A stretch of 64,000 nucleotides of DNA from an uncultured delta proteobacterium (GTDB lineage Bacteria > Myxococcota_A > Polyangia > Fen-1088): NCBI GenBank assembly GCA_963796685.1, contig CAWCMR010000013.1, forward strand, positions 384,001-448,000, read 5' to 3'. Both the position numbers and the translations under genes were made by a program. Each line of letters begins with the position of its first letter. Within the stretch, counting starts at the first letter, position 1. Below are positions 1 to 28,211 of this stretch, one piece after another. The notes below the pieces were generated by a model, which was not told the origin of the DNA, ran no database searches, and was given only the letters and a program-made list of their open reading frames with translations.

Positions 1-534
1 TGTCCGTGAATCGTGGCCTGGACGGTAGAGGCGCCGAGTAGAACGGGGCAGGGCGCTTACCGGGTTCGCGGGGGCGTGCCCCTGTTCGATGATGTCGGCG
101 AAGAAGGTCGACATCTGGCGGATCAGATTCCCGACTGTGTTCGCGGCCAAGCCCTTGGCGAGCTTGTCTTCGATGAATCTGCGAAGCTGGGCGGCGTCGA
201 TCTCGTGCGCCTTCATCTTGCCGAAGGCGGGGCCAAGGTGGGTATTCCACCGGGAACGGTCATCCCGGCATGACCTGTGCGTGGCCTTGCGCCGTTCGAG
301 CCAAGCCTTTGCCAGCGTTTCGAGGTTCGGGGACTCGTCGTAGTCGCGGGGCAAACCAGCGTCACCGGCGGCGACGTCCCTCGTGATCTTGGCAAGAACT
401 TGCTCAGCGAGATCCTTCGAGGCGAACGATTTGCAGCACCGCCGGCCATGCTCGCGCCAGCGAATCCACCACCGGCCGCTGCGCTCGAATAGCGAGCCAG
501 TGCCCCACGTTCGGCGTCGAGGCTTACGAGGCAT
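1..534 (-). CDS. Tyrosine integrase, N-terminal part (runs off the left edge; absent from the ORF track)
   Basis: Manual translation from ATG at 534: MPRKPRRRTWGTGSLFERSGRWWIRWREHGRRCCKSF (arm-binding-type N-terminus), then LETLAKAWLE...HLGPAFGKMKAHEIDAAQLRRFI...LAANTVGNLIRQMSTFF...PANPV (core-binding domain). Catalytic domain is not in the window. Confidence 0.85.
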   Translation of the reverse strand, partial: MPRKPRRRTWGTGSLFERSGRWWIRWREHGRRCCKSFASKDLAEQVLAKITRDVAAGDAGLPRDYDESPNLETLAKAWLERRKATHRSCRDDRSRWNTHLGPAFGKMKAHEIDAAQLRRFIEDKLAKGLAANTVGNLIRQMSTFFADIIEQGHAPANPVSALPRSTRRLYRPGHDSRT

Positions 535-916
535 AGGCCACCTCGCGGTTGCCGTTGGCCGTCGCGACGAGCGCCCGCACGTGAAATGCCGCACGAATGG
601 GCAGCGACTGCCGTAGGCGCGCGGCCAGACTCTCGCGGATCTCTTTGCATAGTCCACACTCGAAGTTCGTATCTGTGCGGGTGTTCTCGTTCACGTACAA
701 CGTGAGCGAGCCACAGACGCAACAGGGCCGCCAGGCCGCGAACCTGACGAGCACGGCGCACAGGTTGCCTTCGATGGGTGCTGGTGTTGGTGGCTTCATC
801 CTGGCGGCCAGGCATCGCCGCCTGTCCTCTTCCAATTCCGCCGGGGTTGCGGTTCGTTCTCGAACGCGTGCTATCTTGGCCATGTCGGATCTCCTTTCAC
901 GGGGCGTGAAGACCAC
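524..916 (-). CDS. Small Cys-rich (CxxC...CxxC) element protein whose stop overlaps the int start
   Basis: CCVC and CGLC pairs; stop at 524-526 lies just inside int; true start may be the MAKIAR Met. Confidence 0.55.
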   Translation of the reverse strand: MVFTPRERRSDMAKIARVRERTATPAELEEDRRRCLAARMKPPTPAPIEGNLCAVLVRFAAWRPCCVCGSLTLYVNENTRTDTNFECGLCKEIRESLAARLRQSLPIRAAFHVRALVATANGNREVAYAS

Positions 917-994
917 GGGGCAGGCTGTTACAGCAGCGCTGCCCCATTTTTGTTGGCGGGGTACTCGTGGCGCGGAGTTAGGGCGCGCGGGCAG

Positions 995-1249
995 CTACTG
1001 GCGCGGCTTCGAGTGCTCGGCGATCCAGCTATTCAGGATGATCTTGATAGCTTCGCTTCGGCTGACTCGGGCGCTTCCAGCGGGCTTTTCGTTGGACATG
1101 CGTGCGGCTTCCACGTCCAAGGCTTTGATAAGCGCGGCCGACGCCTTGAAACTCAAGGTCGTGTCCTCATCTGCCGGGCGAATCTTGGGCCGTCCCACGT
1201 CGAGGATTCTCGCTCTTTCCTGCCTGGTAGTCGATTTTTCTGCGTGCAT
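995..1249 (-). CDS. Ribbon-helix-helix (CopG/Arc-like) DNA-binding protein
   Basis: GRPK, then beta strand TTLSFKA, helix ALIKALDVEAARM, then VSRSEAIKIIL. Confidence 0.7.
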   Translation of the reverse strand: MHAEKSTTRQERARILDVGRPKIRPADEDTTLSFKASAALIKALDVEAARMSNEKPAGSARVSRSEAIKIILNSWIAEHSKPRQ

Positions 1250-1256
1250 GGTTACT

Positions 1257-1285
1257 ATCTTTGCCTGTGGTAGTTATTTAGTCAA
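1257..1285 (-). promoter_or_regulatory. Putative sigma70-type promoter giving a leaderless transcript of the RHH gene
   Basis: TTGACT (1285-1280), 17 bp spacer, AAAGAT (1262-1257), 7 nt before ATG 1249, in an AT-rich patch; the -10 match is weak. Confidence 0.45.
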
Positions 1286-1313
1286 TAAAGAAACGACACA
1301 GGTGTAGGCTCGC

Positions 1314-1715
1314 CTATTTTTCCGCCCCATTGGGCGCACTTTGGCCACGAAGCACTGCGCCTTTTCGTGCAATTCTCGCCGGTGAATGCGCTGGTAGAGC
1401 ATCGGTTCGCGCATCCGAGGCGCGCCCTTTCGTGGCCAGATCGCCAGCGCACCACGGCTCACCAATGGCTTTGAGCAAGCTCGCCGGGAACCATTCTGGC
1501 ACATGGCCGCCCTGCTCAAGGTATAGGGCAAGCTGGCTGCGCAGCTTCACGAGCGCTCGACCGATTCCCGGATCGTCGGGCCGCCCGGCGCAAAGCCAGC
1601 GGTCCACAGTGCCGTCCAGCAGCGAGGTTGCCCCGCCGTGAAACGCCGCCCAAGTCAGAAGCGCCATGATCGCCAAGGCGACTTCGCCGCGCAGATCGGA
1701 CTCGGTCGCGGTCAT
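1314..1715 (-). CDS. Hypothetical element protein
   Basis: 133 aa ORF translationally coupled (ATGA overlap) to the upstream TerS-like gene. Confidence 0.55.
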   Translation of the reverse strand: MTATESDLRGEVALAIMALLTWAAFHGGATSLLDGTVDRWLCAGRPDDPGIGRALVKLRSQLALYLEQGGHVPEWFPASLLKAIGEPWCAGDLATKGRASDARTDALPAHSPARIARKGAVLRGQSAPNGAEK

Positions 1716-2392
1716 GGCTCGTCCCTGGCCTTGGGCGGTTCGTTTCCTCGCAAGGTCCCAGCCGCTGGCTGTGTCTGGTCCGCAGATTCCTGCGCCGCCG
1801 CCGGGCCAGCCGTAATCGCTCGCGCTGGCGTCTCGCCGTCCAGCATCGCCTGTATCTCCTCGGGCGACTTGTTGGCCACGTTCTTGCCGAGGAGCTTGAG
1901 CACGAGAGCCACCTTCGCCTGGTCGATCGACAGCAACAGGCGCACCATCTCGCCGAATTCTGACTCGCGCATATCGCCGCTGACCAGTCGATGCCGATAC
2001 ACGTCGACCGTGATGTCAAGCAAGCTGCGCGTGGTGTCGATGCCCTCGGGAATGTTGACGGGCCGTTCTGCCTTGGCGGGAAGGCCGGCGTAGTATTCGA
2101 GCAGCGTGCGGATGGTCTGGTCGCTGCCCCTGTCCCCGCCGATGGCACGGTCGAATGCGGCTTCCATGATCCTGCGAAAACGCGTTTTGTCTCCGTCGAA
2201 TGGTTCGTCGAGAAACCGGGCCACCTCGGTGGCCTTGTCCCTGCCGTTGATGCCGCGGGGGTTCCCTGTCTCACCCTTGCGGAAAGGCGGCCGGAGATTG
2301 GCGAGTCTCCGCGCCCTGGCGGTTGCCTTGGCGTCCATTTCCGCTTCGGTTCCTTGGCCGGTGGTAGGTAGCGAATCGTCCAAGGTGTTCAT
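1712..2392 (-). CDS. Terminase small subunit-like protein (DUF5681-type motif)
   Basis: RLANLRPPFRKGETGNPRG resembles the FxxGxSGNPxG motif of DUF5681/TerS-like proteins; helical body; coupled to neighbours. Confidence 0.65.
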   Translation of the reverse strand: MNTLDDSLPTTGQGTEAEMDAKATARARRLANLRPPFRKGETGNPRGINGRDKATEVARFLDEPFDGDKTRFRRIMEAAFDRAIGGDRGSDQTIRTLLEYYAGLPAKAERPVNIPEGIDTTRSLLDITVDVYRHRLVSGDMRESEFGEMVRLLLSIDQAKVALVLKLLGKNVANKSPEEIQAMLDGETPARAITAGPAAAQESADQTQPAAGTLRGNEPPKARDEP

Positions 2393-2679
2393 GGCTGGCC
2401 CCCTAATGCTTCACCGTTGCCGGGAATCGCGGCGTCTTGCCACCGTTCGCGCCGCGTTGGCGCTTCCCTGGTATCTCGCCGCCTTGGCACGGGCCTAAGC
2501 TCGAAAAGGGGGCAGGACGGCGTCGTGCAGGCTTCGACCTGTTGGCGCCAGGTCCCGCCACCTACAGGATCGAAGATGCAGCCCTTGCACGCGGCGTTGA
2601 TTGCCCGGCGCATACTCGGCCGTGTGGATGCGGGCTTCATCGGTACAGCCCTTCGTGTTGCGCCGTCTTGCCAAGGCAA
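2389..2679 (-). CDS. Small Cys-rich phage-type protein
   Basis: AINAACKGCIFDP...QVEACTTPSCPLFELRP; start uncertain. Confidence 0.6.
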   Translation of the reverse strand: MPWQDGATRRAVPMKPASTRPSMRRAINAACKGCIFDPVGGGTWRQQVEACTTPSCPLFELRPVPRRRDTREAPTRRERWQDAAIPGNGEALGGQP

Positions 2680-2837
2680 GGCCCTTGCTGCCTCGGTGGG
2701 CTCTTGCGCTTGTGGCGCTCAATCTCGCGCCAGCACCCGAGGCAGACGATTGCACCGGCGGTGAAGTGAGCTTCTCGCCACTCGCTCGCTCCGCAGACGC
2801 GGCATGCCTCGCGCTGCCCAAAGCTTCGTTCACTCAT
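2637..2837 (-). CDS. Small zinc-ribbon-like protein
   Basis: CRVC...CLGC; overlaps adjacent ORFs in the operon. Confidence 0.45.
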   Translation of the reverse strand: MSERSFGQREACRVCGASEWREAHFTAGAIVCLGCWREIERHKRKSPPRQQGPCLGKTAQHEGLYR

Positions 2838-3075
2838 GAGCGCTCCTTTCTCTCGCCAGACGTTTCGTCGAATTCGTGCCGCCTAACGTGGTGCCATGAA
2901 CGCCCAACGCGTGCGGGCGCGCGCTGAGCGTGAGGTAGGTTTTCGCCAACTGTGGCGATACCTCATCGCGCGCGTGCGCGCGTGAGGGTTCAACGTGCGT
3001 GTGCGCGCGCGTGAGCTTGAAGGCAGGCGACGATGCGTGCGCGTGAGCCTTCCCTGTTCGTTTCGCCGCGGTCAT
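2830..3075 (-). CDS. Hypothetical protein overlapping the primase stop; contains GCGTGAG repeats
   Basis: ATGA overlap with primase stop; low-complexity AHAHA/RAHAR derived from DNA repeats. Confidence 0.35.
   Translation of the reverse strand: MTAAKRTGKAHAHASSPAFKLTRAHTHVEPSRAHARDEVSPQLAKTYLTLSARPHALGVHGTTLGGTNSTKRLARERSAHE
2928..3047. repeat. Four GCGTGAG direct repeats, three preceded by alternating purine-pyrimidine tracts
   Basis: Copies at 2928, 2980, 3009, 3041; tracts such as CGCGCGCGTGCGCGCGTG (2967-2984) and ACGTGCGTGTGCGCGCGCGTG (2993-3013). Confidence 0.75.
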
Positions 3076-5624
3076 TGCAATCCCTGCGGCTTGGGCTCCC
3101 TGGCCAAGAACTCACCCACGGTCGGCGCGGGCGCAGACCGCCAGTAGGACCACAAGCGTTGGCCGGCCGCCTCTGCCGTGCCATTCAGCCCCCGGAAGTG
3201 CTCGGCTAGGGCGTCGCGGTCGCCATCGCTGGCCATGGTGCCGGGCTTGGCCCGGAGGCAGTGGGCAAGCTGGGCCAGCGGATCAGGCGCGTCCGCAGCG
3301 GTGGTCAGGTGGTCAGGTGGTGGGCAGCATTTCCCCCCTTCCTTCGTAGAACTATCTTCTCGCGGGAGGGATAGGGGGTTTTGCTGACCACTCCTGACCA
3401 CCTGACCACCGTCCGTCAAGAGTCCGAGCCCATGCCAGCCCCGGACAGATTCCCCGGATACCTTCATTTTCGCGTCGACGATGCCGCGCCGCTTGAGGTG
3501 GTCGCCAAACTCGCGGGCGTGCATCGGGTGCTCGCCCTCGCGGGCGCACCATGCCTCGTAGCTGGTGCGGAGCGCAGAGCGCGACACGCGCGCGTCCGGT
3601 GCCAGTAGGCAGCACTCGCCGAGGTACGGGGCCAGCCGGTCGGACTCCTCGCGATACTCGGCCGTGGCCGCGACGATGGAAGCGCACGCCGATTCGAGGC
3701 ACCGAGGATCGCGCTGCCAGGCCGCGCACCCTACAAGCGCCCAATTCAGGATGCCGGGTAGCTCCGCCCGGAGCTTCGCCGGCAAATCCAGATCCCGACG
3801 CTCTGGCGGAACCACACGATCAAACGGAATGAGCTTGAGACGTCGCCAGATGCCTTCGTCTTGCCCGCGCACGATCGGCTTGTGGTTGCCGGTGAGCACC
3901 ACCTTGTGGGTCGGCTTCCAGGTGACTGGCCCCTCGAACAGGTTTCGGGCCGTCATGGTGTCTGCGCTCGCGAACGCCTTCACTCGTGGTTCGTCGAATT
4001 TGCCGGCGGGCAGCTCCGGAAACAGTGCCCAGCGTGCTCCGCGCAACGGCATGATCTCGCACGCATGCCCCTGGTACTCTTTGGCCATGAGCACCGAGGC
4101 GGGCAGCACGGTCGCGTAGTCACCCAGCAACGCCCCCACCGTTTCGCAGAGCACTGACTTGCCGTTGGCCCCCAGACCGTACAGGAACACCACGACATGA
4201 TTTTTCGTCGAGGCAGTGAGGCAGAATCCGATGAATCGCTGGAGGAATGCGATTGTCTCGCTGTCGGGCAACACCTCGTCGAGAAACTGCGTCCACCTCG
4301 GACACGTGGCCGCCGCGTCGAATGCGACGGGCGCGAGCTTGGTAATTCTGTCCGCCGGGCTGTGCGGGCGCAGTGACCCGGTTTGCAGGTCGATTGCGCC
4401 ATTCGCACAGTTGAGCAACGATGGGTCCGCATCGAATTGCCCGGCCATGGTGGTCAGTCCGAGGTTCGCGGCGGTGGCTCCCTCAATCAGCTTTCGCCGA
4501 CCTGCAACGGTGTTGTAGCGTTTGGCGATCGCCAGACGGGCCTTGTATTGCTGGCCCAGCGGATCGTTGAGGGCATCGCGCAGATACGCCTTTGCAACTT
4601 CGATTGCCTCGCCAAGTAACCAGCACTCGCCCGAATCGCGCACCCACCGCGCGCCGTCGTATCGATACCAGGCGAGCGCATCTGTCGCATACAGGGCGCG
4701 ACCACGAATCAAATCGGCAAACCGCTGCGTCGCCAGCGCGTCCTCAAGCACACCGTCGTAGGACCGGCCGACGCCGTCGGTTGCAATTGATGGATCGTCG
4801 GCCGTCACCGCCGGTTGCGACGCGGGCCGCGGTGCCGGCGTCCATTCTGGCGCCGCTGCAACCAGAGCGCGCAACTCCTCGACGGTGTGCCCGGCGGCCA
4901 ACCAATCGCACACGTCACCTTTTGCAGGCAGGGCGGGCAGTTCGATCACCTTGAGCGAGGCAGCCACGCTGCGCAGCGATTGGGCCACGTGCGCGGCGTG
5001 CTTGGCTCCGGGCGGGTCGTTGTCGGGCAGGATGACAACGTGCCGGCCGGTGAAGGGTTCGCGGAAGCGCTTCGTGTCCCAGAGCTTGGTGCTGCCGGTG
5101 CCGCCGGGGTTCGTGGTCGCAACCAGGCCCAGTGCGGCCAGCGCATCGCAATCCTTCTCTCCTTCGCAGCCGAACACCGGAGCGTCCGCCGGGGCTGCCA
5201 GTAGCGCCGGCAGGCGGTAAGGGATTCGCTCGATGTCTTTCAGGTTCCAGATCCACCGATCGTCCGGTCCGCGCCTCCGCGGTCGAAAGTCTTTGGGGTT
5301 GAATCTGCAAATCTCGAAGCGAACCGCGCCGGCCGTCTCCTCGTAGGGATAGACGGCGACGATTCGTGGCTTGATCGCCGGGGTCTCTGCCCGTGGTGGA
5401 AGGACGTCAGGCCAGGTCAACCCCAGCGCCCTGAGAATCGCATCGCCTGAACCTTCGCCGTGCCCTTGATCGTAGAGTAAGACGATGTCGCCCTGGAATT
5501 CCAGGGATCCAGACGCGTTCTTCTCTTCACGCAGCGGCGATAAGAACTTCCACTTGTTGGCACCTGTTGACCGCAGCTTGTACGGCTGTAGCCTCTGAAG
5601 CAGGAGTGTTTGGCCAGTAGTCAT
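3072..5624 (-). CDS. P4-family primase-helicase (TOPRIM + D5_N + SF3 helicase)
   Basis: TOPRIM CEGEKD and ILPDNDPPG; D5_N LLNCANGAIDL; Walker A GLGANGKS; TGNHKP and GIWRRLKLIPF. Confidence 0.93.
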   Translation of the reverse strand: MTTGQTLLLQRLQPYKLRSTGANKWKFLSPLREEKNASGSLEFQGDIVLLYDQGHGEGSGDAILRALGLTWPDVLPPRAETPAIKPRIVAVYPYEETAGAVRFEICRFNPKDFRPRRRGPDDRWIWNLKDIERIPYRLPALLAAPADAPVFGCEGEKDCDALAALGLVATTNPGGTGSTKLWDTKRFREPFTGRHVVILPDNDPPGAKHAAHVAQSLRSVAASLKVIELPALPAKGDVCDWLAAGHTVEELRALVAAAPEWTPAPRPASQPAVTADDPSIATDGVGRSYDGVLEDALATQRFADLIRGRALYATDALAWYRYDGARWVRDSGECWLLGEAIEVAKAYLRDALNDPLGQQYKARLAIAKRYNTVAGRRKLIEGATAANLGLTTMAGQFDADPSLLNCANGAIDLQTGSLRPHSPADRITKLAPVAFDAAATCPRWTQFLDEVLPDSETIAFLQRFIGFCLTASTKNHVVVFLYGLGANGKSVLCETVGALLGDYATVLPASVLMAKEYQGHACEIMPLRGARWALFPELPAGKFDEPRVKAFASADTMTARNLFEGPVTWKPTHKVVLTGNHKPIVRGQDEGIWRRLKLIPFDRVVPPERRDLDLPAKLRAELPGILNWALVGCAAWQRDPRCLESACASIVAATAEYREESDRLAPYLGECCLLAPDARVSRSALRTSYEAWCAREGEHPMHAREFGDHLKRRGIVDAKMKVSGESVRGWHGLGLLTDGGQVVRSGQQNPLSLPREDSSTKEGGKCCPPPDHLTTAADAPDPLAQLAHCLRAKPGTMASDGDRDALAEHFRGLNGTAEAAGQRLWSYWRSAPAPTVGEFLAREPKPQGLQ
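3300..3410. repeat. Inverted iteron arrays (TGGTCAGG units), putative replication origin
   Basis: GGTGGTCAGGTGGTCAGG (3300-3317) is the exact reverse complement of CCTGACCACCTGACCACC (3393-3410); degenerate third units at 3321-3327 and 3384-3390. Confidence 0.7.
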
Positions 5625-5920
5625 CGCCGCGCCTCCGCGGCCAGCGCCGCCACCGTGGCCCGGTCAATGGGCCGGAGGCTGGCCAGGTCCACGCGGATAG
5701 AGCGCCCATGTCGGACACACGGGTAGGTGCCATCCGCAATTCTACGTCTCACCGTTGCGGGCGAGCCGTACCCTAGTCGCACGAGTTCGGCCACGGTCAC
5801 GAGTCGGCTTGGGCTGGCCGCGCGGAGTGCATCCACTGTCGCGCGCAGCTCACGAATTTCGCCAACAAGAGGCGCGACGGCTGCGCCCACGACGTCGGCC
5901 AGGGCGGTGTCGAGGCTCAT
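5621..5920 (-). CDS. Excisionase/AlpA-like winged-HTH protein
   Basis: LVTVAELVRLGYGSPATVRRRIADGTYPCVRHGRSIRVD; directly upstream of the primase. Confidence 0.8.
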   Translation of the reverse strand: MSLDTALADVVGAAVAPLVGEIRELRATVDALRAASPSRLVTVAELVRLGYGSPATVRRRIADGTYPCVRHGRSIRVDLASLRPIDRATVAALAAEARR

Positions 5921-6135
5921 GGCCGCACCGTGGGGGTGATGGGCGCCAGCGCCTCGCGCACTATGAGGAACGTGCCGCGATGGATGGGCAGGGCGCCCCG
6001 GATGCGGTCGACCGTGTTCCGGGATATTCCGAGTAGCTTGCAGGTCCTCGCCAACCCTTCGCGGGCAAGCAGATGGCGAACCGCGGCGACTACCGCCGGG
6101 GGCGGTGTAACCAGGCCGAGTTGATTCTGAGGCAT
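5917..6135 (-). CDS. Small HTH protein
   Basis: GLARTCKLLGISRNTVDRIR; ATGA-coupled to the excisionase-like gene. Confidence 0.65.
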   Translation of the reverse strand: MPQNQLGLVTPPPAVVAAVRHLLAREGLARTCKLLGISRNTVDRIRGALPIHRGTFLIVREALAPITPTVRP

Positions 6136-6198
6136 GCCATAATTAGGGCCACGCCCGCGGACCTAGAGACAGGGATACAAAATCCCAGCCGACCAACT

Positions 6199-7494
6199 CT
6201 ATTTTGTATCTGGGATTGATCGTTTGAGTCGATTGCGGACAGCTTTTCGGAGGTTCTGCGGTGTGTGGGGGTCCGGGTCAAGACGCAGGTTCTTTCGGTC
6301 GAGGATCGTCGCCACTGCCCTCCAATCTTTCAAGCCACGGGCATTCAACGCAACAGCAGCGTCCACGGCTGGCTTTGGAGGCCTCTTCCTCGGCCGCCCG
6401 AGACTCTGGCACATGGCCCGCGCCTCGTTGGCCACCGCAGCGAGATCGCGCGCCGTGAGTGCGACTTCGTCGGCAGTACAGGGCTCACCCCTGGCGATGC
6501 AGTCCACAAGCCACGCCGCACGAGGGACGCCGTCAGCAGCCAATCGCGCACCCTCCAGAATGCGAAGGAGAGGCAGCAACACTTCATCTCTCACGGTCGC
6601 AGCGTTACCTGGCGTAACGAGAAGCGGGGGCAGGTCCTGGGCCGCCCGGTCAGCTAGATGCGCGATCTTGGGTGCCAGCATTCTCAATTCTTCGTTGCGC
6701 TCTTGAGTCTTGGCTGCAGCCTCAGCCGGCGCAACGGCATCGCAAGCCGCCGCCCACTTGCCTTGTCGGCGATACTCAGCCAAGGAGGCTTCGGCAGCTT
6801 CGACTGCCTTGGGAGTGTCGCCGTACTCCGAGATCGCATCCTGTAGGAGTTCCTTCCGCATCATGTCTTCGTCGCTGGGCCTTGGCTCCGCCGCAATCTC
6901 CCGCGCTTTGTCCTCCGGCAAGAAGGTGCGGAGGATGGCGACGGTTTGCTCTTCTGCCCACCTGGGATCAACCACTGGAGGGGGCGTAGGCAGGCGGTCC
7001 TGGAACGATTGCCCGTCCTCATAGATCTCGTGCATGAGCTTGGCCGCTGGACCGAACACACTGCCCAACGCGTTAAATATCTCGAAGAATTGGTCCTGCT
7101 CCACCTTCGGCAGATTCGCCCACCACTTCCGAATTGCTTGCTCGTCAGCGTCGGATAGTTCGGAGAGAAAGCTCGAAAGTTCTTCCTCAGGTTGCCCTTT
7201 TGGTTCTCGCGTCTTCTTGTAGGCGTCGGCGAGCTGGCTGAATTTCTCGACCGGATCAACTTCGCACTTGCGGTTGCCTTCACTCTTTCCCGTGGACGGC
7301 CTCGGGGCTCGCTTCTGGCGGGCCTTCACCGCTTCCCCGGCATCTTGCCCAACCTCGACCGTGCTCGTCGCACTAGTGCTCGCTGACTTCGCCTGGCACG
7401 GATTCTTGGGGGGGGTCGACACGGTTGCATTCCCTGCATTCCGTTTCGAGGAAGGAAGCCGGGCAGGGCCGTGCGGGAATGCGCGCCGGCCCAC
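6199..7494 (-). CDS. Hypothetical helical element protein with basic, HTH-like C-terminus (start uncertain)
   Basis: Long ORF ending GRPRKRPPK...WRAVATIL...TPQNLRKAVRNRLKR. Confidence 0.6.
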   Translation of the reverse strand: MGRRAFPHGPARLPSSKRNAGNATVSTPPKNPCQAKSASTSATSTVEVGQDAGEAVKARQKRAPRPSTGKSEGNRKCEVDPVEKFSQLADAYKKTREPKGQPEEELSSFLSELSDADEQAIRKWWANLPKVEQDQFFEIFNALGSVFGPAAKLMHEIYEDGQSFQDRLPTPPPVVDPRWAEEQTVAILRTFLPEDKAREIAAEPRPSDEDMMRKELLQDAISEYGDTPKAVEAAEASLAEYRRQGKWAAACDAVAPAEAAAKTQERNEELRMLAPKIAHLADRAAQDLPPLLVTPGNAATVRDEVLLPLLRILEGARLAADGVPRAAWLVDCIARGEPCTADEVALTARDLAAVANEARAMCQSLGRPRKRPPKPAVDAAVALNARGLKDWRAVATILDRKNLRLDPDPHTPQNLRKAVRNRLKRSIPDTK

Positions 7495-7718
7495 GGTTCG
7501 GGGATCAGTCCGATCCGCTGCCCGGATCTAGAGTAGCAGCTTAATGCAGAAATCGACGTTGCAGCTCTGGGATCGCCTACCGTGCCCATGGGCGGAACCA
7601 TGCCTTCCGTATCGCGCCTGCCGGTGGTCAGACCGCGCGGGCGCTTCTGTTTCAAGCTGCCAAGGACGGCGGCGGATGACTAGACGGCCTAGGCCGGCAA
7701 GCGTGCCGGAGCAAGGCG

Positions 7719-8015
7719 CTACCCGCCCGTGACCCTGCGCCTCGGCTTGATCGGCCGGCCGACCGGCCGTCGGATTGGGGGCTCGGCAGACCGACGGAAT
7801 AGGCGCGCCAGGGGTACACCAAAGGCCTCCGCCGCTGCCACAACGGTTCTGAGTGTAGGATTCAAGGCCCCATATTCGAGTTTTTGCAGGTGCTTGAGAT
7901 CGATCCCCATGGCGTCGGCCGCCTGCTGCTGCGACCATCGACGGGCAGCACGTAGGTGCGCCAGATTCGCGGAAAGATTCCGCTTGGCGCTCTCGAAGGA
8001 CGGCTGTGAGACCAT
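7719..8015 (-). CDS. XRE-family HTH transcriptional regulator
   Basis: NLAHLRAARRWSQQQAADAMGIDLKHLQKLEYGALNPTLRTVVAAAEAFGV; C-terminal RPVGRP. Confidence 0.88.
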   Translation of the reverse strand: MVSQPSFESAKRNLSANLAHLRAARRWSQQQAADAMGIDLKHLQKLEYGALNPTLRTVVAAAEAFGVPLARLFRRSAEPPIRRPVGRPIKPRRRVTGG

Positions 8016-8153
8016 GTCCCACCCGTAGCGGCAAACGGCTCCACCAAAAACCTCACCAATGGGGTAATATGTGCATTCTGGTGCCGACAGACCTTTCCAC
8101 CCGGACCATGGAGAAGGCACCGAAACTAGGTTTTCTTCAAATGGAGGGATGAC

Positions 8154-8609
8154 ATGAAGTGGACGCTTGTGGTTCTCCTGGCAGCCGTGGCCGCGTCTGG
8201 CTGTGGAAGCGGGTCAAGCGACCCACTACAAGGAACTTGGGTCGACAACCCCGGCACGGCGGCGGCGGTCCAGGCGATCTTCAAGGGCGACGCATGGGAG
8301 ATCGATACGATCAGCGTGCTGACAACTGGCTCGACCGGGTTGGAGTCAGATTCAGGCACGTACGTTCTTTCAGGCAGCACGATCATGTTTACGACGACAA
8401 AGTCGAGCTGCGAGGGCGTGGACACTGTTGCCAAAACGTTCACGGCGACATTCAGCACCCAAGGGCAAAGCCTGACCATGAACCTTGGAACGACTGTCCT
8501 CCTATTTCAAAAAGCGACTGCACCACCTCAAGGAATGGGAGGCGCGAGCGTGGGCTGCTTCGACTCCCAGGGCAACTTCACGGTCAACCCGATCAAGACC
8601 GTTCCCTAG
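8154..8609 (+). CDS. Cargo lipoprotein, beta-rich (lipocalin-like)
   Basis: Signal MKWTLVVLLAAVAASGC with lipobox; LQGTW motif; GGAGG RBS. Confidence 0.8.
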   Translation: MKWTLVVLLAAVAASGCGSGSSDPLQGTWVDNPGTAAAVQAIFKGDAWEIDTISVLTTGSTGLESDSGTYVLSGSTIMFTTTKSSCEGVDTVAKTFTATFSTQGQSLTMNLGTTVLLFQKATAPPQGMGGASVGCFDSQGNFTVNPIKTVP

Positions 8610-8671
8610 TGCGCCGGGTTCGTTTCGACCGCCTTTTGGCCAAAAGGGCGAGACGGCGTGATAATAGCACC

Positions 8672-9472
8672 ATGAAGAGGCTCGCCTTAGGAGGGATGGC
8701 TGCCCTGACAGCCCTGCTTTCGCATTGGGGGTGCGCGACTCTCACTCCAGAGCAAGCTGCCGAACGAAGGCGGGAGAGGGATGAGGAAAACCAGCGAAGG
8801 GTGATGCAGCGGGAACTCGCGACGTCACCGCCGCCAGTCGCCCCCTACACCGCCCGCCCACCGCTCTGCAACGAGACAAGATCGCCCGGCGTCATCAAAG
8901 TTACCTGCCGGGCCTACGACAATGTGCCATGGTACACAGGGGCAATTTTCGACCAAGTCCATCGGATGGCCGCCGAGTCCACGCTCGCCGCCGGCAAGTC
9001 CTACTTTCAAAGCCTAGGAATAGTGATTCTGGGTGTTCAGACTACCCAACCAATCTGCCGCGAAGAGGTTGATCGGACGTCCGCAGTGCTTGTTGGGATA
9101 GGCAATGCGCTAAGTGGGGCGGGCGAAACTAAGACCAGGTGCTCCACCACTGTGGGCAATGACGTTGAGTGCACCACAACGCCTGCCCCCCCGCCTGCAC
9201 GGCCCAAGTCCAGGACTGTCTGCGAAGGTGGTGGGGAACTTCAATGGATCGACTCGGTGGAGTCCTTTGAGATGCTAGATGCGGATCAGGCTGCCGCTCG
9301 TAGTGATCCCTTGATTCCCTCTGCGAAGCGGCCTATCGAAGCACGCGCGGTTCTCGCGCCAAGAACCGCAATTCAGCCGGTTCCCGCCAGTCGGGTGGCG
9401 CCCATCAGCCAGCCGTCGCGGTCCCGTCAGAACGCGGAAACTGACCGAAAGTCCGACCCCTTCGAGAAATAG
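8672..9472 (+). CDS. Cargo lipoprotein, Cys-containing, unknown function
   Basis: MKRLALGGMAALTALLSHWGC signal and lipobox-like Cys. Confidence 0.65.
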   Translation: MKRLALGGMAALTALLSHWGCATLTPEQAAERRRERDEENQRRVMQRELATSPPPVAPYTARPPLCNETRSPGVIKVTCRAYDNVPWYTGAIFDQVHRMAAESTLAAGKSYFQSLGIVILGVQTTQPICREEVDRTSAVLVGIGNALSGAGETKTRCSTTVGNDVECTTTPAPPPARPKSRTVCEGGGELQWIDSVESFEMLDADQAAARSDPLIPSAKRPIEARAVLAPRTAIQPVPASRVAPISQPSRSRQNAETDRKSDPFEK

Positions 9473-9718
9473 TGCCCAGTCCCGTGTGCGGCGCCTTCCG
9501 GCGATCTTGCACCAGCTAGAGAAGGTCATGAGTTTGGGCACCTCGCAGGCCAAGCTCCCCGGCGGCCCATCGGTTTGGTCTGTCAGGTGCGTCGGATGTT
9601 GTCCTGGCGCATGGTGGCCATAGTGTGCCCAATCGCCCCTAAGAGGTGCCCATTTCTGGCGGTCATACCTTTGCCACAACCGAGAGAAAACCACGCCGTG
9701 ATTGGGGTGACGGTGCCC
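9472..9718. promoter_or_regulatory. Cluster of GTGCCC(A) motifs, putative integrase arm-type sites
   Basis: GTGCCCA at 9472, 9625, 9646; inverted TGGGCAC at 9535; GTGCCC at 9713; all in non-coding DNA next to the crossover. Confidence 0.55.
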
Positions 9719-9747
9719 CTTGTTCACGGGCCGTAAAAACCAAGCTC

Positions 9748-9786
9748 TTAGGAAACCGCCGCTCTATCCACCTGAGCTACGGGGCC
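9748..9786 (-). tRNA. 5' half of tRNA-Arg(CCT), interrupted after the anticodon loop (att junction)
   Basis: GGCCCCG TA GCTC AGGTGGATA GAGC G GCGGT TTCCTAA gives acceptor 5' strand, D arm, anticodon 5' strand and loop; followed by GAGCT instead of ACCGC, with no T arm. Confidence 0.9.
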
Positions 9787-9855
9787 AAACGGTTGAACCA
9801 TTAGATAGTCTGTTTCGCGGCGGAGATCCATCCTCGGATGCGGCGTTGTTCTCGC

Positions 9856-12852
9856 TCAGCCCTTGGGCTTGGCCGGGGATGGCGACGGGACGGGGCGCGC
9901 GAGGCCGGGGGCGGTTGGGGCATTGCCTTCCGGTGCGAGCGGGGTTCCGAGATCCACGGGGGGCTCGTCACCGATGGTCATGGGAAGGTCCAAGACACCC
10001 TCGCCCTGTGGGGTGGGGGGCACCGAGGCACCGCCTTGTTGTGGAGGCGGGGAGGGGGGCGCCAGGGAGGCGGGAAGGACGGTCTCGGAAAGCTCCGGCG
10101 ATAGTGGCCTGAGGCTCATCGTCAGCCTGCCGGCCCGCGCGGATCCCGTCGTGGGGGCCACGGTTTGCGCGACGGCCGGGGAAGTCGGGGAAATCAGGTC
10201 CACGATGGGCGTGTCCTCGAGTGAGATCTCGATTCCAGCCGGTCCCTTGGGCTCGACGGGGGTCGCGGTTGCTGGACCACCGCCCGCGGCAGCGGGGGAC
10301 TGGAAGACCGTGGCGGACGTCGCAAGCGCATGGGCGAGCGTTCCCGATGCGTCCGGGGCCTTGGTCATGTAAGAGGCGGCGTCGTCGACCTGCCGTTCGA
10401 GAGCGCGCGACACGAACTCCTGCCGCCGCTCCCACACCAGGTTGATGGTCATGTCGTGGACCTTCGCCTTCACCACGTGGTAGGGCCGATCGACGGTCAT
10501 TTCACGCGCGCTCACGCGGATGACATGAAATCCCTTCTGCATCTTCAACGCGACCCTGCCGTCCTTGCCCGTGGCCACGGCCTTGGCGCGCTCGTCGTCG
10601 AGCCACACCCGCGCACCTTCGACCGGGCCGCGATCGTCGACGACGAGGATCTTGAACTCGGCTTCGGCGGCCTCAAGGACATGGGCGACGAAGGATGTCT
10701 TGCGCGCCTGCACTGCCACTTCCTGGGGCGGCTCTCGCAGCAGCATGGTTTGGCGGCCTCGGGTGTAGATGCCGTAAAGGTGAACGTACCACTTGCCGCG
10801 CGGGATCCCGCGGAAGGTCGTGTTCTGGTCGATGTTCCAGGCTTCGAAGCGCCGCTTGCGCTTCCCCAGCCACTCCAGCTTCTTGCGATAGGCGGTCAGG
10901 TTGGTGATGGACGGCGTGTGCGGCGAGCGGGAGATGAGAATCGAGAACAGCTCGTCCTTGGCATCCGAGTCCCACTGCACCCTGACCACGATGGTGCCCC
11001 GCAGCGAAAGCGCGATGGCCCAGGCGAGCGTGGCCAGGAAGGCCAGCGCGATGAGCCCGATGAGAAGCGGGTTCAGCACCATCAGACCGGTCGAGCGTCC
11101 CACGAGCGAGGTCTCGATGCGGTCGGCCCGCTGGTGTGCGACGTCGTACAGGACTAGCTCGAGCGTCACCCACGGCGCCAAACTGGCGGGCCGAATGCGA
11201 TAGAGCAGGAGCGCACCGCAGCCCAGATCGTGGGCCATGGTGGCGATGCCCTCGTCGGTCAGACGCGCGGGCGGCAGGATCTCGGTTTCAATCTTGGCCC
11301 GGGTCGCTTGCAGCTCCCACGGCGCGCGTCGCAAGGCTTCCAGCAGGCCTTCGCTCATGTGCTCCTTGCGCACGAGAAAGGGCCAGTAGAAGGGCTGGCC
11401 GCTACCCGGCAGGGCAGCGATCTGGATGGTCGAGAGGGCGGGGTCGTAGAGGTTGTCGAAGCCTTGGAGGATCTGGCGCAGGTTGCTTGCGAGCGGGCTA
11501 GGGGGCCCGCTTGGCTTTTCTGGTCCAATGTCCGCCGCGATCGCCTTGGCCTCTTCCTGGCGCTTGACGAGCTTCTGCGACAGACCGGCCGAGGCCCTGT
11601 CCGCTTCCGCGCCGAGGCGCGCGCTGATGGCCTTGACTTGATCGGCGTTGAGCTCCTGGACCTGAACCAGCGAGGCCGCTTGCCCTGCCTGTTCGCCGGA
11701 CGCGAGCGCTCTGGCGGCCAGGGTCGAGGCCAGTCCAGGTTCTTGGAACGCGAGCTTCTCGGCCGCCGCCAGCGCCGCAGCTTCCGTCTTGGGACCGAAC
11801 GTGCCAGGGGCCGTGGCGGCGATGATGGGCAGAAGGGGGCGCCATTCCGATGCTGGTCTTCCCACCAGCGGCGCAAGGGCGGCGTCCCGATTGTCGATGG
11901 GGTCGCCGCGCGCGATGGCCAGGGACACCGCCCCCAGCGCGGTGGCCGACAAATTGTGCGACCCGCGCAGCAAGGTCAGCTCGGCTTCCGCCGCGGGGAA
12001 GCTCTTGAGGGCAGCCAGAGCGCGCACTTTGGTCGCGCGCAAGGCGGCGTTTTGGGGGTTCGTGGACAACCCGTCATCGGCCAGTTGGACGGCGACGGCC
12101 CAATCGCCAAGCAACAACCTTGCCTGGGCACGGGGGAGGGCAGGCAGGGCAGGATCCTCGGCCAGAGTGAGCAGGATGTTCCTGGCGCCCGCCAAACGGG
12201 ACACGACTGCGGGCAGCGCGAGATCGACGGCACGCGACGCCGCCGCCGGATCGCTCGACACCATGGCCGACTCGGCCGCGAGGAAGGGGCGCACGTCGGC
12301 GAGTCCGGCCTCGGCCATGTCGCCCAGCGTGACACCGATGGCCGGAGCGATTCGCCTGGCCAGCCTTCGGGCGAGCTCGGCCACGTCGCCAGTCGCTGCC
12401 GAGGCGGAAATGCGCAGGAGTCGCCTGCCGCTCGGTCCGATCATGGTGCCGGCCACGGTCGTGCCCTTCTGACCTACCTGCAGCTCCCACAGAATCAAGG
12501 CATCGGCCGCCATGCGCTCGATGAGCCTGGTCCCGATGTCGCTGGACACGGTCAAGTCCTTTCCGGGAGCTTTCCCCGTCAGCGCCTCGATGGCCAAGGC
12601 CAATTCACGCCTGGGCGCGATGACGCGCTGGCCAGGCTGTCCGGTCGATAGGTAGGATCGCACGAGCAGTGAAACGGCTCCGGCCAATTCGGCCTGGTCG
12701 GGCACGGCCATGGGATCGGGAACGACGACCACCTCGGCGGATGCCTTTCCGGACAGGCCGAGCGCCCATGCGCAGGCCAGGCCCGCAGCCAGAAATCTTC
12801 CCCTGGCCGCACCAAACGGCGACGGAGGCGACAGGGACGGGCACGGACGCAT
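9856..12852 (-). CDS. Large single-pass membrane protein of unknown function
   Basis: Signal peptide, Ala/Leu-rich TPR-like region, TM helix LLIGLIALAFLATLAWAIAL, beta-rich domains, Pro-rich tail. Confidence 0.8.
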   Translation of the reverse strand: MRPCPSLSPPSPFGAARGRFLAAGLACAWALGLSGKASAEVVVVPDPMAVPDQAELAGAVSLLVRSYLSTGQPGQRVIAPRRELALAIEALTGKAPGKDLTVSSDIGTRLIERMAADALILWELQVGQKGTTVAGTMIGPSGRRLLRISASAATGDVAELARRLARRIAPAIGVTLGDMAEAGLADVRPFLAAESAMVSSDPAAASRAVDLALPAVVSRLAGARNILLTLAEDPALPALPRAQARLLLGDWAVAVQLADDGLSTNPQNAALRATKVRALAALKSFPAAEAELTLLRGSHNLSATALGAVSLAIARGDPIDNRDAALAPLVGRPASEWRPLLPIIAATAPGTFGPKTEAAALAAAEKLAFQEPGLASTLAARALASGEQAGQAASLVQVQELNADQVKAISARLGAEADRASAGLSQKLVKRQEEAKAIAADIGPEKPSGPPSPLASNLRQILQGFDNLYDPALSTIQIAALPGSGQPFYWPFLVRKEHMSEGLLEALRRAPWELQATRAKIETEILPPARLTDEGIATMAHDLGCGALLLYRIRPASLAPWVTLELVLYDVAHQRADRIETSLVGRSTGLMVLNPLLIGLIALAFLATLAWAIALSLRGTIVVRVQWDSDAKDELFSILISRSPHTPSITNLTAYRKKLEWLGKRKRRFEAWNIDQNTTFRGIPRGKWYVHLYGIYTRGRQTMLLREPPQEVAVQARKTSFVAHVLEAAEAEFKILVVDDRGPVEGARVWLDDERAKAVATGKDGRVALKMQKGFHVIRVSAREMTVDRPYHVVKAKVHDMTINLVWERRQEFVSRALERQVDDAASYMTKAPDASGTLAHALATSATVFQSPAAAGGGPATATPVEPKGPAGIEISLEDTPIVDLISPTSPAVAQTVAPTTGSARAGRLTMSLRPLSPELSETVLPASLAPPSPPPQQGGASVPPTPQGEGVLDLPMTIGDEPPVDLGTPLAPEGNAPTAPGLARPVPSPSPAKPKG

Positions 12853-26379: not shown

Positions 26380-27528
26380 ATGCTCCAACACCTGAAGATC
26401 GAGGGCTACAAATCGGTGGCCAGCCTGGATTTGGATCTCGGCCCCCTGAACGTGCTCGTCGGCGCGAACGGCACGGGGAAGTCCAATATCCTGTCAGTTT
26501 TCGGGCTGCTGAATCACCTCGAGGATGAGGAAGGGCTTGCCAACTACGTCCAAGTCCAAGGCGGCGCCAGCTCGCTCCTCCACCTCGGCCCCAAGAAGAC
26601 GGTCCGAATGTCGTTCGAGATCATCTTCGAGACAGAAGACGAGTCCTCCGTCGAGGCGAAGCAAGGACGGAATTTTTACCATGCGGCCTTCACGTACGGT
26701 GCGCGGGATTTCTTGGTCTTTGGCGAGGAGAAGGTTGGGTACGAGCCCGCGGATCGGTCTCTCCCAGCCGAGTGGTTTCTTACCTCTGCCCGGAACAGGT
26801 CGCGGCTGGCTGACGTGGTTGCTCACGTCGGGCCAGGGGGACCGATCGAAGAATTCATCAAAGGCCATCTCCGCCGCTGCCGTCTCTACCATTTCCATGA
26901 CACATCTCGCGAGGCAGCAGTCCGGCGACTCGCGGATCTACACGCCGAGCGCGACCTCGACGAGGATGCAGGCAACCTCGCTCCCTTCCTGCTCATGCTG
27001 CGCCAGAGTCATCCGCGGCGTTTTCAAGAGATCGTCGAAATCGTTCGCCTCGCGTTCCCGCCTTTCAGGGATCTCGTTCTCGATCCGTCCCGGTCGGATC
27101 CAGGAAAGATCATGCTGCGATGGCGCGAGCGGGCCAGCGACTACGAGTTCGGCCCCCATCAAATGTCGGACGGAACCCTACGCTTCCTGTGCCTGGCTAC
27201 GCTGCTACTCCAGCCCTTCGAAGATGTCAACGCACCCAAGCTTGTCGCTTTGGATGAACCCGAGCTGGGTCTGCACCCCCATGCGATTCAGTTGCTTGCC
27301 TCGATGTTGGCACGAGCCGCGCGAACCGTTCAAATCATCGTTTCGACCCAGGCGGCTTCCCTGGTGTCGGCGCTGGCGGATCCGGCCGCCATCGTCGTGG
27401 TCGAGCGCGAAGATGCCGGCACCACGGCACGCCGGCTGACAGCCGAAGAGGTCGACCCCTGGCTCGACGAGTATTCCCTCGGCGACATCTGGGAGAAGGG
27501 TGTGTTTGGAGGAAGGCCGAGGCCGTGA
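26380..27528 (+). CDS. ABC/AAA_21-type ATPase
   Basis: LKIEGYKS; Walker A GANGTGKS; signature MSDGT; Walker B LDEPELGLHP. Confidence 0.92.
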   Translation: MLQHLKIEGYKSVASLDLDLGPLNVLVGANGTGKSNILSVFGLLNHLEDEEGLANYVQVQGGASSLLHLGPKKTVRMSFEIIFETEDESSVEAKQGRNFYHAAFTYGARDFLVFGEEKVGYEPADRSLPAEWFLTSARNRSRLADVVAHVGPGGPIEEFIKGHLRRCRLYHFHDTSREAAVRRLADLHAERDLDEDAGNLAPFLLMLRQSHPRRFQEIVEIVRLAFPPFRDLVLDPSRSDPGKIMLRWRERASDYEFGPHQMSDGTLRFLCLATLLLQPFEDVNAPKLVALDEPELGLHPHAIQLLASMLARAARTVQIIVSTQAASLVSALADPAAIVVVEREDAGTTARRLTAEEVDPWLDEYSLGDIWEKGVFGGRPRP

Positions 27529-28211
27529 GGCGCGTTCTGGTTCTGGTCGAAGGACAGACCGAAGAGACCTTCTTCAATGGCGTGATTCGCCCACACCTGA
27601 CTGCTCTCGGGATCGACGCGAACTGCACCCGCATATGCACCCAGCGCGAGCAAGGCCGGCGCACGTTCCGTGGCGGCCACGGTCACAAGTGGGGTCACAT
27701 CGAACGCGATATCCGGCTGCTGCTTGGTAGCAAGCCCGATCGTGTCAGCACCTTGATCGACCTTTACGCCTTTCCGCGCGACATGCCGGGCTTTCCCAGC
27801 CCGTGGCCCAACACAACCCAAGACCGGGTGGCCGTGCTTAGCGCGGCGTTCGCGGCGGCCATAGACGACGTGCGCTTCCTTCCCGGCCTGCTGGTACACG
27901 AATTCGAAGGTTTGCTCTTCTCCGATGTCGACAAGCTCGTCGACGTAGTCAGCCTGGTCGCGGGGGAAGCCGCCCAGGCGAAGCCCGCGCTGCAGGCCGT
28001 GCGCGATCGGTTCGGCACACCCGAGGACATCGATGATGGGGTCGACACCGCTCCTTCGAAAAGAATCCTGGAGATCGTCGGGACCTACGCCAAGGTCAGC
28101 CACGGGCCGAGGATCGCCCAGGCCATCGGCCTTCCGAGCCTGCGCCAAGCTTGCCCCCATTTTGACGGCTGGCTCCAGCGGCTGGAGAAGATCGGAACGT
28201 CGGAAGACTAG
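27525..28211 (+). CDS. DUF4276-family (TOPRIM-like) protein
   Basis: VLVLVEGQTEETF; STLIDLY; VHEFEGLLFSD; PEDIDDG..TAPSKRI; CPHFDGWL; GTGA-coupled to the ATPase. Confidence 0.88.
   Translation: MRRVLVLVEGQTEETFFNGVIRPHLTALGIDANCTRICTQREQGRRTFRGGHGHKWGHIERDIRLLLGSKPDRVSTLIDLYAFPRDMPGFPSPWPNTTQDRVAVLSAAFAAAIDDVRFLPGLLVHEFEGLLFSDVDKLVDVVSLVAGEAAQAKPALQAVRDRFGTPEDIDDGVDTAPSKRILEIVGTYAKVSHGPRIAQAIGLPSLRQACPHFDGWLQRLEKIGTSED

Follow-up and report, generated by a model that had tools for sequence, protein, structure and literature searches.

A tRNA gene that breaks off at its anticodon loop appears to mark the junction between an integrative element and the chromosome in a 64,000-nucleotide (nt) stretch of DNA from an uncultured delta proteobacterium (assembly GCA_963796685.1, contig CAWCMR010000013.1, positions 384,001 to 448,000), here called the window. 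The truncated gene is the 5′ half of a tRNA-Arg(CCT), and the element is visible as an integrase gene (int) at the left edge of the window together with the genes between int and the half tRNA. The features at and around the junction are as follows, with coordinates counted from the first letter of the window.

1..534, minus strand: N-terminal 178 amino acids (aa) of a probable tyrosine integrase, 98.9% identical to the 412-aa protein P0002; the gene leaves the window at its left edge
9473..9747, no strand assigned: non-coding P′ arm of the putative attachment site, with heptamer repeats
9748..9754, minus strand: anticodon loop TTCCTAA, the predicted 7-bp overlap (strand-exchange) region, placed by the ends of attL/attR identity in relatives
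9748..9786, minus strand: apparently displaced tRNA-Arg(CCT) 5′ half of 39 nt on the host side of attL, delimited by tRNA-Arg(CCT) matches that end at nt 39/40
9787..9855, minus strand: host-side leader between the stop codon of a 998-aa TPR protein gene and tRNA +1

The 39-nt half reads GGCCCCGTAGCTCAGGTGGATAGAGCGGCGGTTTCCTAA from 9786 to 9748 on the minus strand. It consists of a 7-nt acceptor 5′ strand, a D arm, the 5′ strand of the anticodon stem and the 7-nt loop TTCCTAA, with the anticodon CCT at 9752-9750. The tRNA-like sequence stops exactly past this loop, and the bases that follow (GAGCT...) are unable to pair with the 5′ strand of the anticodon stem. An earlier note on this DNA had described the fragment in these terms, and the comparison with complete genes agrees with it: the half is identical at 36 to 38 of 39 nt to positions 1 to 39 of tRNA-Arg(CCT) genes at four related integrase loci (L022, L055, L062, and L077), with blastn E values from 2e-10 to 1e-15 and all alignments ending at nt 39/40. 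The exact 39-nt string occurs once in the window and in none of 100 shuffled versions. The fragment is terminal rather than internal, beginning at tRNA +1 and lying at one end of the element.

The same note had found no tRNA 3′ half downstream of the fragment, and wider searches bore this out. ARAGORN detected no tRNA gene in the 64-kb window, a pattern for the T arm and acceptor strand matched 25 times in the window versus 23.6 matches expected, and the longest match of the 3′ halves of the four relatives' tRNA-Arg(CCT) genes to the window was 14 nt (E values of at least 0.2). Rfam searched at gathering scores gave no match in the window, and the folding stability of 9700-9800 was unremarkable (z = 0.62). 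A permissive Rfam scan of 9000-10500 returned SAM-IV (E 7.3) and Scr1601 (E 5.9), both at chance level and rejected; the SAM-IV riboswitch-like match, at 9524-9641 on the plus strand in the P′ arm, scored 16.3 bits against a gathering score of 38 and is taken as chance.

The two sides of the half tRNA differ in gene content. To its right, which is its upstream side, lie host genes: the 998-aa TPR protein gene stops 69 nt before tRNA +1 and is followed rightward by genes of the GDP-mannose pathway and then by genes for RelA/SpoT, DNA polymerase I, RNase III, and Ser/Thr kinases. This flank is a chromosomal core region. To its left, nearly all genes are on the minus strand, and the N terminus of Int lies 9.2 kb downstream of the half tRNA on the same strand. 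P0002, the near-identical protein, matches Pfam Phage_integrase (PF00589) at 6e-16; the visible 178 aa alone match Phage_int_M at 21.4 bits, under the 27-bit cutoff, and the catalytic domain lies beyond the window. In an alignment of 66 full-length homologues, R212, K246, R323, and Y355 are invariant. Because homologues are 412 aa long, the int stop codon is expected some 705 nt beyond the left edge of the window. Within the window, int contains two AGG codons, as had been reported, and one AGA codon. A genome-contig search with the window's own Int fragment gave no relative; the nearest integrase in a phage collection was 28% identical, and no Myxococcus phage was among the best 15 of 229 matching phage records.

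We then turned to related integrase loci. Using the alignment of the 66 full-length homologues, we retrieved 80 loci, all from Myxococcota-type metagenome assemblies except for one Anaeromyxobacter genome, and oriented them so that int reads on the plus strand. In 41 of the 80, int shares its strand with an adjacent complete tRNA gene that starts between −23 and +93 nt from the int stop codon; in 37 of these 41, the distance was at most +34 (range, −23 to +34). The int stop codon falls inside the first 23 nt of the tRNA gene in seven of the 41, either at tRNA nt 8-10 (L004, L006, L007, L021, L024, and L077) or at nt 21-23 (L068), and the six overlapping stops from L004 to L077 use the conserved TAG or TAA at tRNA positions 8-10. 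Fifteen different anticodons are represented among the tRNA-adjoining loci, with Arg-CCT in the four loci named above, and int in the integrated relatives is whole, at roughly 400 to 430 aa. An adjacent tRNA gene on the opposite strand was found in five loci (L010, L037, L052, L067, and L080). In seven further loci, the downstream DNA available was less than 150 bp, too short for a call.

A second, partial copy of the adjacent tRNA accompanies a subset of these loci. Ten of the 41 loci with a same-strand tRNA have a copy of its 5′ half on that strand, 1 to 10 kb upstream of int; no inverted copies were found among the loci searched. Displaced halves were detected in 5 of the 15 loci where int is full length and some 10 kb of upstream sequence is available (L002, L007, L019, L022, and L025) and in 5 of the 16 loci with a truncated int (L055, L056, L059, L061, and L072), and all 10 have a complete tRNA gene beside int. 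L022 is a full Arg-CCT analogue of the window, with the fragment at 1730-1769, int at 10001-11239, and the complete tRNA at 11258-11333. For 8 of the 10 loci, we aligned the displaced half (attL) with the corresponding part of the complete gene (attR). In seven of the eight pairs, identity sets in at tRNA +1 or immediately before it; L056 has about 28 nt of additional upstream identity, and L019 shows differences in the first few nt. Identity ends within 1 to 3 nt of the 3′ edge of the anticodon loop in every pair, as it does in the window, and the tRNA blocks shared between attL and attR in these alignments measure 36 to 40 nt. Since the identity blocks span the region from the tRNA start to the loop edge, these elements appear to carry tRNA positions 1 to 38 right after int, and the crossover is best placed within the loop; for the window, we infer from the relatives' identity ends a crossover within TTCCTAA.

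The window's integrase groups with elements of this kind. We built a tree from 44 near-full-length relatives, with P0002 as proxy for the window, and excluded L045, whose int contains an internal stop, as well as 35 loci for which fewer than 340 residues matched. P0002 clusters with L002 and L007, both of which have the full attL/attR pattern, and this grouping sits in a supported set of 13 rows (Shimodaira-Hasegawa-like approximate likelihood ratio test [SH-aLRT], 96). Nine of the 12 relatives in this set have a same-strand tRNA according to ARAGORN. As for the others, L012 has a tRNA-like gene interrupted by NN at 11249-11330, directly after int, that ARAGORN missed; L016, in the region 9553-10346, carries about 700 bp of inserted DNA between a truncated int and the arm repeats, A/T-rich box, and tRNA-Arg(TCT), so that its tRNA lies about 790 bp after int; and L003 has no downstream DNA. 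The kinship with L002 extends to gene content: six genes are common to the L002 element and the window's element by tblastn, namely, four between a helix-turn-helix (HTH) gene and int, in conserved order, plus the HTH gene itself and a 431-aa open reading frame (ORF).

The DNA flanking the tRNA sequences shows a recurrent layout. In the relatives, two direct repeats about 11 bp apart lie at −78 to −58 before the tRNA, inside the 3′ coding end of int. We checked these repeats in 7 of the 10 attL/attR pairs (all except L055, L059, and L072). An exact 7-mer search was too strict, giving matches in two of the seven loci, and was replaced by degenerate motifs; with these, each of the seven pairs contains its own repeat motif again, in unchanged orientation, at +117 to +140 past the attL crossover, compared with 0.07 to 0.76 matches per 350 nt expected from the locus-wide frequency. 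The window contains such heptamers in its P′ arm.

9646-9652, minus strand: TGGGCAC, +96 after the crossover
9625-9631, minus strand: TGGGCAC, +117
9614-9620, minus strand: TGGCCAC, +128
9535-9541, plus strand: TGGGCAC, inverted, +207
9472-9478, minus strand: TGGGCAC, +270

Four of the window's 19 TGGGCAC matches thus fall within 181 bp (9472-9652). The stretch from +117 to +134 would encode GHTMAT, a string present in the C-terminal tail of P0002, and this coincidence would fit a matching repeat in the 3′ end of the window's int beyond the left edge. We regard the heptamers as putative arm-type sites that Int may bind.

Between arm and core, 10 of the 41 same-strand loci have an A/T-rich box, YAANNNNTTGAWW, placed 22 to 25 nt ahead of the tRNA, versus 28 matches in 1.15 Mb of background. 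Degenerate forms occur in other loci; the box is kept wherever int stops and in some loci supplies the int stop codon, and native tRNA leaders in the same loci are without it. It resembles, in reverse, the IHF consensus. As read from the sequences, the attP layout of the clade is arm repeats in the int 3′ end, the A/T-rich box, tRNA positions 1 to 38, a predicted crossover in the loop, and arm repeats at +117 to +140. The arm repeats and their placement indicate that the DNA left of the half tRNA in the window is a genuine attP arm and that the junction is a true attL, which argues against a chimera or a random break. In attP sites of the lambda type, arm-type sites, a site for a bending protein, and a core are combined, and the clade resembles them in having direct heptamer repeats on both arms about 100 to 140 bp from the crossover and a putative IHF-like A/T-rich box between arm and core.

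On the host side, the original tRNA promoter presumably lies in 9787..9855 or farther upstream; a scan of 9200-10000 for sigma-70 consensus promoters and terminators found none. The part of the leader next to the fragment (9787-9815, minus strand) is richer in A and T than the relatives' native tRNA leaders and bears a faint likeness to an element-type leader, which hints at a trace of an earlier occupant of the same site; no int relic was found upstream of the window's fragment.

We consider it highly probable that the half tRNA is a host 5′ fragment displaced by an element that rebuilds tRNA-Arg(CCU) beside int. According to this model, which draws on sequence comparison, an integrative element of about 10.5 kb would have recombined with the chromosomal tRNA-Arg(CCU) gene inside the 7-nt anticodon loop. 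Its attP would carry tRNA positions 1 to 38 directly past the int stop codon, and integration would join this 5′ half to the host's 3′ half, giving a complete tRNA immediately downstream of int. For the window, the rebuilt tRNA-Arg(CCT) is predicted on the minus strand, about 0.7 to 0.8 kb beyond the left edge, and int would then lie between the 5′ fragment and the complete gene. The original host 5′ half would remain as a fragment next to its own upstream region at the opposite end, attL; this is the end that the window displays. Because only −23 to +34 nt separate the int stop codon from the tRNA in 37 of 41 loci, the rebuilt tRNA would probably be transcribed from within or through int. The earlier note had offered two options, of which this was one: a 5′-half copy downstream of int, with the tRNA rebuilt at the far end. 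That option is supported by the 41 same-strand loci, the 10 displaced halves among them, and the arm-site layout of the window.

Several points weigh against this model. The far end of the element is outside the window, and the rebuilt tRNA is predicted rather than seen. The clade is not uniform: in addition to the five loci with an opposite-strand tRNA, 27 of 80 are without an adjacent tRNA. No displaced 5′ half was found in 10 of the 15 loci that combine a full-length int with about 10 kb of upstream sequence; in these, either the element may exceed 10 kb or the fragment may have degenerated. The degenerate arm motifs were chosen by eye before they were counted. Finally, a scan of the 150 nt preceding each of the 41 rebuilt tRNAs turned up no sigma-70-like promoter; it was likewise negative in control stretches and ahead of the window's own fragment, so it is insensitive in GC-rich DNA.

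The second option of the earlier note, which gave that note its title, was a regulated switch: the element would carry no tRNA part, and tRNA-Arg(CCU) would be split and silent until excision. The absence of a 3′ half or a whole tRNA from the visible 9.7 kb and from the rest of the window agrees with this as negative evidence only, and loss of the tRNA might be tolerable if AGG is read by wobble of another Arg tRNA. However, all 10 relatives with a displaced half, including L002, L007, and L022, keep a complete tRNA beside int, and the window's left arm shares its arm-site layout with elements that rebuild the tRNA. The 998-aa TPR host gene alone contains 13 AGG codons, and with AGG in use in the window's host genes, silencing of the tRNA would carry a cost. 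We therefore judge the switch very unlikely and set this part of the earlier interpretation aside. Somewhat less improbable, if still with only a small chance of being right, is that the window holds a leftover attL of a decayed or rearranged element whose far end has disappeared or been relocated through a deletion, another insertion, or tandem arrangement. Such histories have parallels in the clade: int is truncated in 16 of the 41 same-strand loci, L016 has its 700-bp insertion between int and tRNA, and in L008, L018, and L072, one tRNA appears to be used in tandem by a second island. In the window, by contrast, the visible int has an uninterrupted reading frame whose product is 98.9% identical to P0002, a full-length protein of 412 aa, and the element genes are likewise open and share synteny with those of L002; even in relic loci, the rebuilt tRNA beside the int remnant is intact.

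Two further explanations have little to recommend them. The element might leave the tRNA unrepaired and supply a separate, whole tRNA-Arg, a phenomenon known from mycobacteriophages with tRNA-dependent lysogeny; in the phages described in PMC10865867 (Fionnbharth and others), the sequence common to attP and attB is only about 10 bp long, and a replacement tRNA is encoded by the phage. The window resembles these cases in that a tRNA gene has been integrated into and the original broken at its own promoter. Unlike the short-core case, in which the gene is not rebuilt, the relatives share 32 to 40 nt between attL and attR and rebuild the tRNA at the junction; the visible part of the element has no tRNA gene, and the approximately 0.7 kb left of the window would be filled by int, leaving no space for a free-standing tRNA-Arg. 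The likelihood of this explanation is minimal. We rate equally low the prospect that the junction is an assembly chimera or a chance resemblance. Nothing specific favors it beyond the origin of the relatives in metagenome-assembled genomes, which the window's source may be too, whereas the half matches real tRNA-Arg(CCT) genes with E values down to 1e-15, the junction lies exactly at the loop edge as in eight independent relatives, and the flanking DNA has the clade's arm sites at the expected distance.

Displacement of a 5′ half by an element that rebuilds the tRNA is a rare but already known arrangement, and the window is a further case. The counts given for Islander (PMC4383910) list 159 islands with a 5′ tRNA gene fragment and 3,760 with a 3′ fragment, 3,919 in total, consistent with the statement in the earlier note that integrases usually supply a new 3′ half. 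The configuration filter in that source expects 5′ fragments upstream, and its 5′-fragment islands share with the element proposed here a tRNA fragment and a restored gene in the same orientation, with int between them and the fragment upstream. They differ in that the restored gene here would fall outside the window and the clade comes from Myxococcota assemblies; the counts, as presented there, do not say which integrase clades leave 5′ fragments. Among archaea, pTN3-like elements have an attB in the tRNA 5′ half and reconstitute a full tRNA parted from its original promoter (PMC5495485, legend to S2 Fig). The integrase promoter drives expression of this recombinant tRNA according to section 18 of PMC8371274, where the use of the 5′ half is called unique to pTN3-like integrases among archaea and “seldomly encountered in bacteria,” with a citation of Williams 2002.

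The Myxococcota-type clade and the TKV4/pTN3 elements of Thermococcales are alike in using the 5′ tRNA half and in rebuilding a full tRNA away from its promoter. They differ in that pTN3 is archaeal and its SSV-type int is split by integration, whereas int in the relatives remains whole because the crossover lies roughly 10 to 70 nt (typically about 50 nt) past the int stop codon. The classical anticodon-loop tRNA integrases (class A) were reportedly described by Williams 2002, which PMC4383910 and PMC8371274 cite. With these integrases, the clade shares a crossover mapped to the 7-nt loop, the dyad symmetry of the stem, a probable tyrosine recombinase, and a restored tRNA, and the location of the ends of attL/attR identity at the anticodon loop, seen in eight relatives' pairs and in the window's TTCCTAA end, places it in the same sublocation class. 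The difference is that classical class A elements carry the 3′ part and the tRNA keeps its promoter, whereas here the 5′ part is carried and the new leader is the 3′ end of int. A further comparison is with integrases whose gene extends across attP, such as those of Mx8 and SSV, which are mentioned in PMC4383910. In both cases, the int frame overlaps the attachment site, here through the P-arm repeats in the last 80 nt or so of int; in the clade, however, the crossover is outside int, so that integration leaves the Int protein unaltered. Our literature searches found no description of the Myxococcota clade, which is weak evidence of absence.

A stranded tRNA 5′ half beside a mobile element is not by itself evidence of a switched-off tRNA, since some integrases, a minority, substitute the 5′ portion and restore the gene at the end next to int. 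The related loci reveal a coherent bacterial clade that does so systematically, in 41 of 80 loci and with 15 anticodons across Myxococcota-type assemblies, and island-finding software should also seek 5′ fragments upstream of int-tRNA pairs. Such elements place the host tRNA under element-derived upstream sequence, which raises questions about tRNA expression, int regulation, and element retention. The only working host copy of the tRNA in the clade would sit 3 to 34 nt behind int or overlap its stop codon, and a complete tRNA would exist in the integrated state only, with the host's tRNA supply dependent on transcription from the element. One conceivable though doubtful consequence is an Int-off integration sensor, in which int and the tRNA are cotranscribed and RNase P, cutting at tRNA +1, trims the int mRNA only after integration. 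In the seven overlapping loci, this processing would remove the int stop codon, and the trimming would serve as a functional analogue of sib retroregulation in lambda. Any transcription that still starts at the stranded host 5′ half would enter the last gene of the element in the antisense direction.

The remaining genes of the element in the window are the following.

597..1307, plus strand: 236-aa ORF divergent from int, with tblastn matches at 10 loci, where it lies immediately upstream of int and in the opposite orientation
1314-1715, 1712-2392, and 2389-2679, minus strand: three small element ORFs, 61 to 85% identical by tblastn to L002 7955-9200
3072..5624, minus strand: 850-aa primase-helicase (D5_N/DUF5906; Pfam D5_N, 2.2e-27; PHROG DNA primase, 1e-130)
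5621..5920, minus strand: small HTH protein (Pfam HTH_17, E 0.002, 18.8 bits, under the 27-bit cutoff)
6199..7494, minus strand: 431-aa element ORF, also in the L002 element (tblastn, 42% identity to L002 3308-4831)
8690..9472, plus strand: cargo gene, converging on attL, for a conserved hypothetical protein (about 260 aa; possible lipoprotein signal); start approximate

The primase-helicase, which has homologues in six related loci, is the replication gene of the element. The small HTH protein, with homologues in 20 of the 80 loci that frequently lie directly upstream of int, is a candidate excisionase or AlpA-like regulator. The three small ORFs have the same gene order as in L002 and no Pfam or PHROG family match. 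The 236-aa and 431-aa ORFs and the cargo protein have no family match in Pfam, PHROG, or PADLOC, and PHROG and PADLOC assigned no family to any element ORF without a function. Megablast of window positions 1-9800 against plasmids and phages gave no match. The cargo gene is called as a 437-aa ORF (8159-9472, plus strand), of which only residues from about 191 to 437 match four homologues (241 to 268 aa, 45 to 69% identity), so it is probably a gene of about 260 aa; a minus-strand ORF overlapping it (9275-9727) is probably spurious.

The survey also yielded observations on other arrangements. In the five loci with an opposite-strand tRNA, the tRNA 3′ end faces int, which is the classical orientation; no displaced fragment was found for any of them, and L010 nests within the same-strand clade in the tree. 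Eight loci (L035, L036, L038, L039, L045, L050, L054, and L070) have an opposite-strand tRNA-Met(CAT) at varying distances downstream of int; four of the eight fall in a 13-row Anaeromyxobacter-type subclade without an adjacent tRNA, and these loci may represent a different target arrangement. Repeats of the 3′ half of the rebuilt tRNA occur 3.5 to 8 kb downstream in L008 (15115-15160), L018 (14757-14804), and L072 (18458-18500), which suggests a second, classical island on the 3′ side of the tRNA, with both halves of the gene serving as targets. Just downstream of the tRNA-Lys in L056, a 19- to 26-nt repeat recurs about every 80 bp (10613-11051). Farther right in the window, an AAA_21/AAA_15 ATPase gene followed by a DUF4276 gene (26380-28211, plus strand) lies beside a stretch of lower G+C content (0.585 to 0.60 at 28-30 kb) and may be a small accessory or defense-like pair.

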